In this document: piece after piece, positions 6,046 through 6,964 of the stretch
Layout: every line of letters starts with the position of its first letter
Numbering within the stretch: the stretch's first letter is position 1
DNA from: Escherichia coli
Lineage (GTDB): Bacteria > Pseudomonadota > Gammaproteobacteria > Enterobacterales > Enterobacteriaceae
Direction: 5' to 3' (one strand)
Length of the DNA stretch: 64,000 nt
NCBI RefSeq assembly: GCF_030384885.1
Contig: NZ_CP128613.1
Notes under the pieces: model-generated
Database searches by the model: none
Told to the model about the DNA's origin: nothing
What the model saw: the letters and a program-made list of their open reading frames with translations, nothing else
Translations under genes and position numbers: made by a program

Positions 6046-6964
6046 GAATCTTGACCTTTTTTGCTGTTATCGCCACTCCCTGCCGTGGAAGTCAGCTTAG
6101 AACAATGTACTCCCCCAGGACGGCGTTTTGAAGGTCTGCAGAATAAGATTTTGCAAGAGGGGAAGACTCGATTGTGCTGTTAATAACTTAATAATGGCAA
6201 AATAATGAGGTGTATATGCTTAGTAATTAATGTTATGTAGTGAATTGTTCTGATTCTTAATTGTGAGTGTGGTTTTTTTATCTGTAAGATAATTGTTTGA
6301 AAATGCCTCGTTTAAGAATTCACTAATGAATCGTGATGATGATATTTCCGCATTACGGAGAGTTTAACAGCGTGATGATTTCCGAGGTGTCGTAATGGGT
6401 GCAAGGTGTGAAACTATTGTTAAGCGGGATTAATGAATGAGGATGATGCTAATTAATTATTATTTAATATTCAAAAAGGTTTTGTTGTGCTTATTAATAA
6501 TAGAAGATTACTTTGCCTAACATAACATAACTTTGCATCAGATAATTCGCAATGACCCTTATAAATAAAAGGTTTTTGGGGTAAAATGCTCGCATAAATG
6601 ACGGATCCCTGCTCTTGATGCCGCCTCACCATTGCTGTTTGTACGTGTTCGCGTATGACCAGCGATGCTGCACGAGAGTGGAACAAGGACTCACATTTAC
6701 ATTTATACAAACACGCGCATGTCATAAATACAAAAGAGTGAGTAACTTAATAGATATGCGATTCCTGAAGATATATTCTGTGATCTACTTCAGGCATTAT
6801 AACGGAACAATGTGAGTCGCTTTTTTAGTGCAACTCATATGCATTTTTACTTTCGTCCGGGTTCCGGATGAAACTGCCAGGGAGGCACATTACAAATGGA
6901 ATTGCTTGTTTGTGTGTGCACAGCATTAACCAGCTCAGTACGAGCCGCCAGTAAGTGATAATAT

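Follow-up and report, generated by a model that had tools for sequence, protein, structure and literature searches.

The spacer between the divergently transcribed genes alaA and lrhA of Escherichia coli is best read as a composite control region, in which the alaA promoter and 5′ untranslated region (UTR), an AT-rich regulator-binding middle, the lrhA promoter and a 371-nucleotide (nt) lrhA leader follow one another, and which is largely documented already. We put the probability of this reading at about 0.9. The stretch analysed, referred to here as the window, is 64,000 nt of contig NZ_CP128613.1 (assembly GCF_030384885.1). In it the alaA open reading frame (ORF) runs from 4828 to 6045 on the minus strand and that of lrhA from 6965 to 7903 on the plus strand, which leaves a gap of 919 base pairs (bp) at 6046-6964. 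The gap is equally 919 bp in K-12 MG1655, without an annotated feature inside it. An earlier sequence-only reading of the window had proposed a long regulated leader or promoter region for lrhA. That proposal is right at its core and already published, in the form of a 371-nt UTR repressed by small RNAs (sRNAs), with the caveats that the leader takes up only 371 of the 919 bp and that some 90-110 bp at the left end would be the promoter and 5′ UTR of alaA, a part missing from that reading. The opposite picture, a single start close to lrhA and no protein binding, is contradicted by a published start 371 nt upstream and by the data on Hfq, Lrp and H-NS.

The position of the lrhA start comes from published experiments, which we mapped onto the window. 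Melamed et al. give the lrhA 5′ UTR as 371 nt (PMC10578931), and the 3′ end of primer SM079 from that paper, ATAAATGACGGATCCCTGCT, is identical to the window from position 6594. Since 6594-6964 is itself 371 nt long, we place the lrhA +1 at 6594. The promoter preceding it (Table 1) has hexamers 17 bp apart, and its -10 ends 6 nt upstream of the published +1. An LrhA search, taking one genome per species, gave 80 orthologous loci from Escherichia to Buttiauxella, Cedecea, Pluralibacter and Atlantibacter, and conservation in the gap was followed in a MAFFT alignment of 79 intergenic regions. There, the CTTATAAATA block of the -35 region and the -10, TAArAT (TAAAAT or TAAGAT), are near-invariant, and between 6486 and 6592 the window carries no single-nucleotide polymorphism (SNP) relative to K-12. 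The -35-region hexamer matches only three of six consensus positions, and the combination of a good, invariant -10 with a poor -35 fits with dependence on an activator. This promoter falls below the 9/12 threshold of the promoter scanner used, which returned two promoter-like sites in the gap (6517-6546 on the plus strand and 6200-6171 on the minus strand), fewer than expected by chance and neither of them one of the conserved promoters.

Published experiments also show that the leader is bound by Hfq and controlled by sRNAs. RNA interaction by ligation and sequencing (RIL-seq) recovered chimeras of the lrhA leader with UhpU, ArcZ, RprA and McaS; a lrhA-lacZ translational fusion was repressed by UhpU, ArcZ and RprA, with the UhpU pairing proven by compensatory mutation, and McaS bound the leader without repressing (PMC10578931). 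A 2025 PNAS paper confirmed the repression by UhpU, using pulse expression, and the conservation of its site in Escherichia (PMC12704781). [quoted passage not shown] Bilusic et al. found that Hfq co-precipitated leader-region RNAs roughly 150 and 350 nt long (PMC4152368).

These discrete bands raise the question of whether an independent sRNA gene, the 'ig-lrhA-alaA' Hfq-bound RNA, acts in trans from the gap, for instance by sponging up McaS. No other sRNA has as many RIL-seq chimeras with the leader as McaS, which nevertheless leaves lrhA unrepressed; that the interaction may instead affect McaS is the authors' suggestion (PMC10578931). We consider such a gene improbable. Bilusic et al. describe the RNA upstream of lrhA as 5′ UTR-derived fragments, that is, within the mapped leader, and the same probe detects the lrhA mRNA of about 1.5 kb, which is raised in an hfq mutant (PMC4152368). 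The terminator scan found no terminator-like site on the plus strand within the gap, the only conserved plus-strand promoter is that of lrhA, and a cmscan of Rfam 15 with permissive filters gave no match at E<=1 within 6046-6964. Sub-threshold Rfam matches outside the gap (greA leader, AaHKsRNA41) correspond to the lrhA terminator hairpin at 7944-7985 and were rejected. With no terminator, no Rfam match and the Hfq-bound fragments lying inside the lrhA leader transcript, the suggestion from sequence of an unannotated sRNA did not survive.

The sRNA pairing sites would fall in the last 90 nt or so of the leader. UhpU, ArcZ, RprA and McaS sequences were taken from the K-12 annotation, and a local helix scan was run after whole-molecule duplexing. 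For UhpU the scan agrees with experiment: the published lrhA-M1 gBlock change, GCCGCCAGT to GCCGCGAGT (PMC10578931), falls at window position 6949, inside the site that we had predicted independently. In an alignment of 74 leader sequences only the Escherichia/Citrobacter/Salmonella group has the UhpU target GCCAGU, with ACCUGU in its place in most other genera, whereas the CAYAGC core (6919-6924) of the putative RprA/McaS site is more than 90% conserved and is found family-wide. This difference in range is one of the points added here. The positions given for ArcZ and for RprA/McaS are predictions of the local helix scan; the ArcZ site does not rise above shuffled sequences (fraction 0.57), and by energy the RprA/McaS site does not outdo them.

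Conservation of the leader between genera is limited to its last 80 nt or so, the first 290 nt or so being poorly conserved. The conserved end holds four near-invariant elements, AAAnGGAAUUGCUU, CAYAGC, AACC and AGUGA. The ATG within AAAnGGAAUUGCUU is not itself conserved, so the motif is not a conserved start codon. CsrA or some other conserved factor might bind it together with a GGGAGG that lies 17 nt upstream. The motif loosely resembles the GGA site of CsrA; our literature search found no link between lrhA and CsrA in cross-linking immunoprecipitation sequencing (CLIP-seq) data, and one CsrA paper mentions lrhA merely in passing. In each of the 78 sequences with AGUGA, 5-8 nt separate it from the AUG, which would suit a non-canonical ribosome-binding element; it is presumably complementary to the 16S 3′ end, ...GAUCAC....

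The leader as a whole is somewhat more structured than its shuffles, with a minimum free energy (MFE) z-score of -2.25. One hairpin of the MFE fold (6851-6873) has 84% of its alignment cells paired in 15 Escherichia, Citrobacter and Salmonella sequences, against 32-57% in slid controls, and three of its pairs switch between CG and UA. In more distant genera it is out of register. A ligand-sensing riboswitch, or an attenuator that terminates prematurely, might be read into the long UTR and this mildly stable fold, and the signal that induces LrhA is unknown (PMC10578931). We give this idea very little credence: the leader has no Rfam match at E<=1, no terminator-like site and no consensus structure, its 5′ three-quarters are poorly conserved, and our literature search found no link of lrhA to Rho-dependent premature termination in the leader.

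Coding potential was the other possibility raised for the gap. The two ORFs of 84 and 66 amino acids (aa) that had been noticed from sequence and taken as spurious both exist, and both are chance ORFs; neither is conserved. The 66-aa frame was rejected as a gene since a TAG cuts it short in K-12 and it is interrupted in each other genus checked; the 84-aa frame is already broken in a divergent Escherichia (L006) and in E. albertii. A 20-codon upstream ORF (uORF) at 6896-6958 looks more suggestive, having GGGAGG 10 nt upstream and ending in the invariant GUGA 6 nt before the lrhA AUG, where it could be coupled to lrhA translation. A conserved uORF was nevertheless rejected: among 79 orthologues just 5 carry an ORF that opens with an in-frame ATG and closes at the invariant TGA, and L006 and E. 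albertii are not among them. K-12 has T in place of C at window position 6941, which by our own reading of the frame turns an in-frame CGA into TGA and shortens the uORF. That any of the three encodes a small protein is therefore highly unlikely, and the unannotated small protein once proposed for the gap can be set aside.

The long gap is a shared property of the family. The two genes are divergent neighbours in 78 of the 80 Enterobacteriaceae loci, and the gap measures 848-1013 bp in 76 of those 78, with extremes of 764 and 1140 bp; because divergence and similar lengths are retained, the long gap is no accident of one strain. Within the species, 5425 of the 5426 complete E. coli genomes carry the gap sequence; in the rows sampled its identity was 96.7-100%, with one exception, and none of the matches listed (about 75 of the 5425 genomes) has a RefSeq feature beneath it. 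The description of the gap from sequence as about 920 bp, AT-rich and non-coding was accurate. Its GC content is 0.382 against 0.507 across the window (6% of 919-bp windows are equally low), and by segment this is 0.49 for 6046-6145, 0.32 for 6146-6593 and 0.43 for the leader, 6594-6964. Homopolymer runs include T6 at 6057, T7 at 6273 and T6 at 6821, together with T5 and A5 runs. Conservation across genera is concentrated in four islands amid variable sequence, at 6046-6145, 6406-6485, 6526-6590 and 6886-6964. Differences between the window and K-12 amount to 1.3% in the leader, 2.2% in lrhA, 3.9% in alaA and 6.4% in the 362 bp of 6124-6485, so that within E. coli the leader and both promoter segments (0 SNPs) diverge less than the flanking genes (2.2-3.9%).

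At the alaA end, the hexamers of a putative sigma-70 promoter are near-invariant among the 79 sequences while the spacer between them varies freely. Since this pattern is typical of a promoter, we predict the alaA +1 near 6097. Like that of lrhA, the promoter has hexamers within the 16-18 bp spacing of sigma-70; the lrhA pair sits at the published start, and the alaA start is predicted. TTCAAA-17-TACATT matches the consensus at 8 of 12 positions and lies under the scanner's 9/12 threshold. The short 5′ UTR that would result has conservation of 0.69-0.83 in the alignment, and there are no SNPs relative to K-12 across 6046-6123. The block directly upstream of the -35 (6139-6153) matches the Lrp consensus, YAGHAWATTWTDCTR, at 13 of 15 positions with a mean conservation of 0.69; taken alone the match is not significant, as 20% of shuffles equal it.

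The putative alaA 5′ UTR would begin with a conserved hairpin (6072-6096). In the 79 sequences neither its loop, ACGGCA, nor the upper part of its stem varies, and the base of the stem covaries, with a closing pair that is AU (42 sequences), GC (12) or GU (9). Pairing is seen in 91.9% of alignment cells (alignment A1), compared with 30-74% in slid controls, and none of 500 shuffles reached the covariation score. The hairpin has no Rfam match, its core occurs only once in the window, and the literature that could be searched yielded no account of it. The 5′ UTR hairpin of ompA offers a likeness for this element only, being a short stable hairpin at or a few nt from the mRNA 5′ end, inferred in the case of alaA, with compensatory pairing. 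Unlike that type, the alaA hairpin has an invariant loop and upper stem, which a purely protective hairpin would not need. It could be the operator for an RNA-binding regulator of alanine transaminase synthesis and not a passive stabiliser. As a separate observation, the 16-mer CGGCTACGGCAGGAAG occurs twice on the minus strand (53283-53298 and 53526-53541, 243 bp apart) and matches the alaA hairpin core with three mismatches.

Published work on the gap and on lrhA expression bears on the control of lrhA transcription. RcsB and LrhA itself are among the regulators of lrhA transcription. Published chromatin immunoprecipitation (ChIP) shows that Lrp binds at lrhA, which it activates; CpxR binding at the lrhA promoter has also been published, and H-NS strongly represses lrhA in BW25113, as judged by expression. 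Shimada et al. name the '920 bp-long lrhA-alaA' spacer among long spacers that bind multiple transcription factors and report RpoD holoenzyme peaks in it (PMC3946193). Weak RpoH and RpoE peaks from systematic evolution of ligands by exponential enrichment (SELEX) are also listed for the spacer. In the ST131 strain EC958, Tn5 insertions in the gap lead to hypermotility, as do lrhA knock-outs. Two conserved blocks lie between the two promoters. The distal one (6406-6470) has conservation of 0.5-0.68 in otherwise variable surroundings and is a candidate activator or architectural-protein site, and the block at 6541-6555 is a candidate site for a proximal regulator.

The AT-rich core at 6146-6405 is probably a spacer or a nucleoid-protein platform. 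That it has no function, or is passively coated with H-NS, which would leave just the 100-190 bp to either side of it to matter, seems to us possible but doubtful; this view is compatible with a composite control region and does not exclude it. The core has the lowest conservation in the gap and a low GC content (Table 1), it holds 21 of the 23 SNPs that separate the 6.4%-divergent 6124-6485 from K-12, no motif in it exceeds chance, and in one strain homology breaks there beside IS1. Set against this, many genera keep the gap at about 850-1010 bp, which hints that spacing or DNA architecture is constrained, and the length is nearly fixed in 59 of 60 rows sampled across the 5425 E. coli genomes. 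The strain in question is E. coli SCPM-O-B-12142 (NZ_CP144928.1), where homology to the gap extends for about 167 bp and ends near 6212 beside the transposase gene of an IS1, and where the sequence from lrhA onward to fragments of elaD is missing; this is a deletion associated with an insertion sequence that begins in the AT-rich core. A cluster of six substitutions in seven bases was also seen in the core at 6222-6228 (AGTAATT in the window, TACATGC in K-12).

Several observations weigh against the composite reading, or against parts of it. Across genera, conservation is poor over most of the leader (6600-6885), which leaves the leader's length unexplained, and RNAalifold on its last 135 nt in the 74 sequences returned 0 pairs and hence no family-wide structure. 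Whole-molecule RNAduplex runs of the sRNAs against the leader gave diffuse long-range pairings with z-scores of +0.2 to +1.1, no better than shuffles, and the best local duplexes were equalled or beaten by 12-96% of dinucleotide shuffles; sequence alone is insufficient to identify the sRNA sites. On the alaA side, the SELEX-based paper chose a different promoter in silico, TTAAGA-17-TATAAC at about 6260 to 6232 (PMC3946193). That promoter is poorly conserved, lies within the variable core and has an altered -10 in the window strain (GTTATG in place of the GTTATA of K-12, plus strand); our own predicted +1 comes from phylogenetic footprinting. Scans of the gap with consensus sequences for CpxR, RcsAB/RcsB, IHF, CRP, Fis, H-NS nucleation and a generic LysR-type transcriptional regulator box gave nothing above shuffles, and because no transcription-factor consensus beats chance the conserved blocks are left here without an assigned factor. 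The evidence for H-NS is at the level of expression only, and the RpoD SELEX table that marks H-NS sites leaves this spacer unflagged (PMC3946193). The best match to the H-NS nucleation motif TCGATAAATT is 7/10, under the shuffle mean, although 6146-6593 is as AT-rich as an H-NS target should be. The expectation that the gap is a target of nucleoid proteins is upheld for Lrp, by binding and activation, and for H-NS extends to repression of expression.

Taking the evidence together, a composite control region could work as follows. On the left, the alaA promoter would drive a short 5′ UTR that begins with the conserved hairpin. The AT-rich DNA of 6146-6593, with its conserved blocks, may serve as a landing platform for Lrp, CpxR and H-NS and also for RcsB and LrhA, and factors bound there would set the level of transcription from the promoter with the weak -35 that starts at 6594. 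The 371-nt leader produced is bound by Hfq, and UhpU, ArcZ and RprA would pair in its final stretch, beside AGUGA, resulting in a block to translation, decay of the message, or both. The lowered LrhA would in turn de-repress flhDC and tune rpoS, rprA and other LrhA targets. In this account the steps of transcription and of sRNA control have been published, and we infer the ArcZ and RprA/McaS coordinates, the promoter of alaA and the parts given to the conserved blocks and to AGUGA.

The closest analogue of this arrangement is the csgD-csgB spacer together with the csgD leader. Several Hfq-dependent sRNAs repress csgD, among them McaS and RprA, which use the same UGCUGUGUGUA seed. In both systems the gene of a master regulator has a long 5′ UTR, and both spacers are long, divergent and named together as binding multiple transcription factors, with 755 bp for csgD-csgB in the csgD-csgBAC system compared with 919 bp here (PMC3946193). 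The two differ in that CsgD is a LuxR-type regulator with a leader of about 150 nt whereas LrhA is LysR-type with a leader of 371 nt, that McaS does not repress lrhA (PMC10578931), and that lrhA has a gene for a housekeeping aminotransferase as its divergent neighbour. Related by function and part of the same network are the leaders of rpoS and flhDC, long Hfq-binding 5′ UTRs that integrate ArcZ, RprA, McaS and related sRNAs, and LrhA represses flhDC, rprA and rpoS, which places all of them in one circuit (PMC5861431, PMC10578931). ArcZ and RprA activate rpoS by opening an inhibitory hairpin, whereas both repress lrhA, and the lrhA leader shows no conserved inhibitory long-range structure in RNAalifold. 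We see no departure of the region from this known type.

LrhA stands near the top of the E. coli regulatory hierarchy for motility, stress, virulence and, as recently reported, CRISPR-Cas. Envelope stress (CpxR, Rcs) and nutrient state (Lrp) are among the inputs that meet at the gap, as are sRNAs linked with oxygen, with the status of the envelope and with sugar-phosphate. These inputs are already documented and the finding brings no new biology; besides the ranges of the sRNA sites, what we add is a coordinate map in the window strain and a footprint showing that about 350 of the 919 bp are constrained across Enterobacteriaceae. In a region already described, the alaA hairpin and the leader motif AAAnGGAAUUGCUU are the sole unreported items and the only leads. 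It is a tentative suggestion, and one that we would not favour at present, that these two conserved RNA elements are new cis-regulatory sites or, alternatively, that the Hfq-bound leader fragments act in trans as a McaS sponge.

Table 1. Coordinates in the window of features in the alaA-lrhA gap; a dot marks features given without a strand.
Feature	Position	Strand	Details
Putative alaA 5′ UTR, ~52 nt	6046..6097	-	Downstream of phylogenetically footprinted promoter
alaA 5′ UTR hairpin	6072..6096	-	5′-GCUG ACUUCC [ACGGCA] GGGAGU GGC-3′
Putative alaA sigma-70 promoter	6104..6132	-	-35 TTCAAA (6132->6127), 17-bp spacer, -10 TACATT (6109->6104)
Conserved block CAGAATAAGATTTTG	6139..6153	.	Directly upstream of alaA -35; resembles Lrp consensus
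Fast-evolving AT-rich core	6146..6405	.	GC 0.34; conservation 0.22-0.44
Conserved upstream block TGTGAAAnnAnTGTTAAGnnnnATTAATGA...AATTAATTATTATTTAATATT	6406..6470	.	-188..-124 from lrhA +1
84-aa ORF	6471..6725	-	Program ORF list
Conserved block CAGATAATTCGCAAT	6541..6555	.	-53..-39 from lrhA +1; conservation 0.57-0.74
lrhA core promoter and +1	6559..6594	+	-35 TTATAA (6559-6564), 17-bp spacer, -10 TAAAAT (6582-6587), +1 = A at 6594
lrhA 5′ UTR, 371 nt, Hfq- and sRNA-regulated leader	6594..6964	+	PMC10578931, PMC4152368, PMC5861431, PMC12704781
66-aa ORF	6615..6815	+	Program ORF list
Leader hairpin UUUCGUCCGG-GUU-CCGGAUGAAA, 10 bp	6851..6873	+	Found in MFE fold
Predicted ArcZ site	6875..6885	+	UGCCAGGGAGG with ArcZ UUUCCCUGGUG, start of processed ArcZ; 11-bp helix
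Leader motif AAAnGGAAUUGCUU, near-invariant	6894..6907	+	>90% conserved at 8 positions, 74 sequences
Predicted RprA/McaS site	6914..6925	+	GUGUGCACAGCA with UGCUGUGUGUA(C); 11-12-bp helices
UhpU pairing site CGCCAGU	6946..6952	+	Pairs with UhpU ACUGGUG (local helix scan); validated nucleotide 6949
AGUGA, invariant	6954..6958	+	6 nt upstream of AUG; GTG invariant, flanking A's >90% conserved (74 sequences)

Some further observations concern other sequences and the surroundings of the gap. One assembly labelled Chryseobacterium sp. 18061 (CACSKA010000019.1) has a typical enterobacterial alaA-lrhA locus with an LrhA 78% identical, and is probably mislabelled or contaminated. Stretches of lower GC content than the gap occur elsewhere in the window, at about 23-27 kb and at 60-62 kb, the minimum for 919 bp being 0.308 from position 61341. 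The lrhA-nuoA gap (7904-8532) is a second long intergenic region; it shows 63% mismatches to K-12 at a fixed offset, which indicates at least one insertion or deletion. A strong hairpin, rich in GC and with U-runs on the two strands, lies just 3′ of lrhA at 7944-7985 and is probably a bidirectional terminator.

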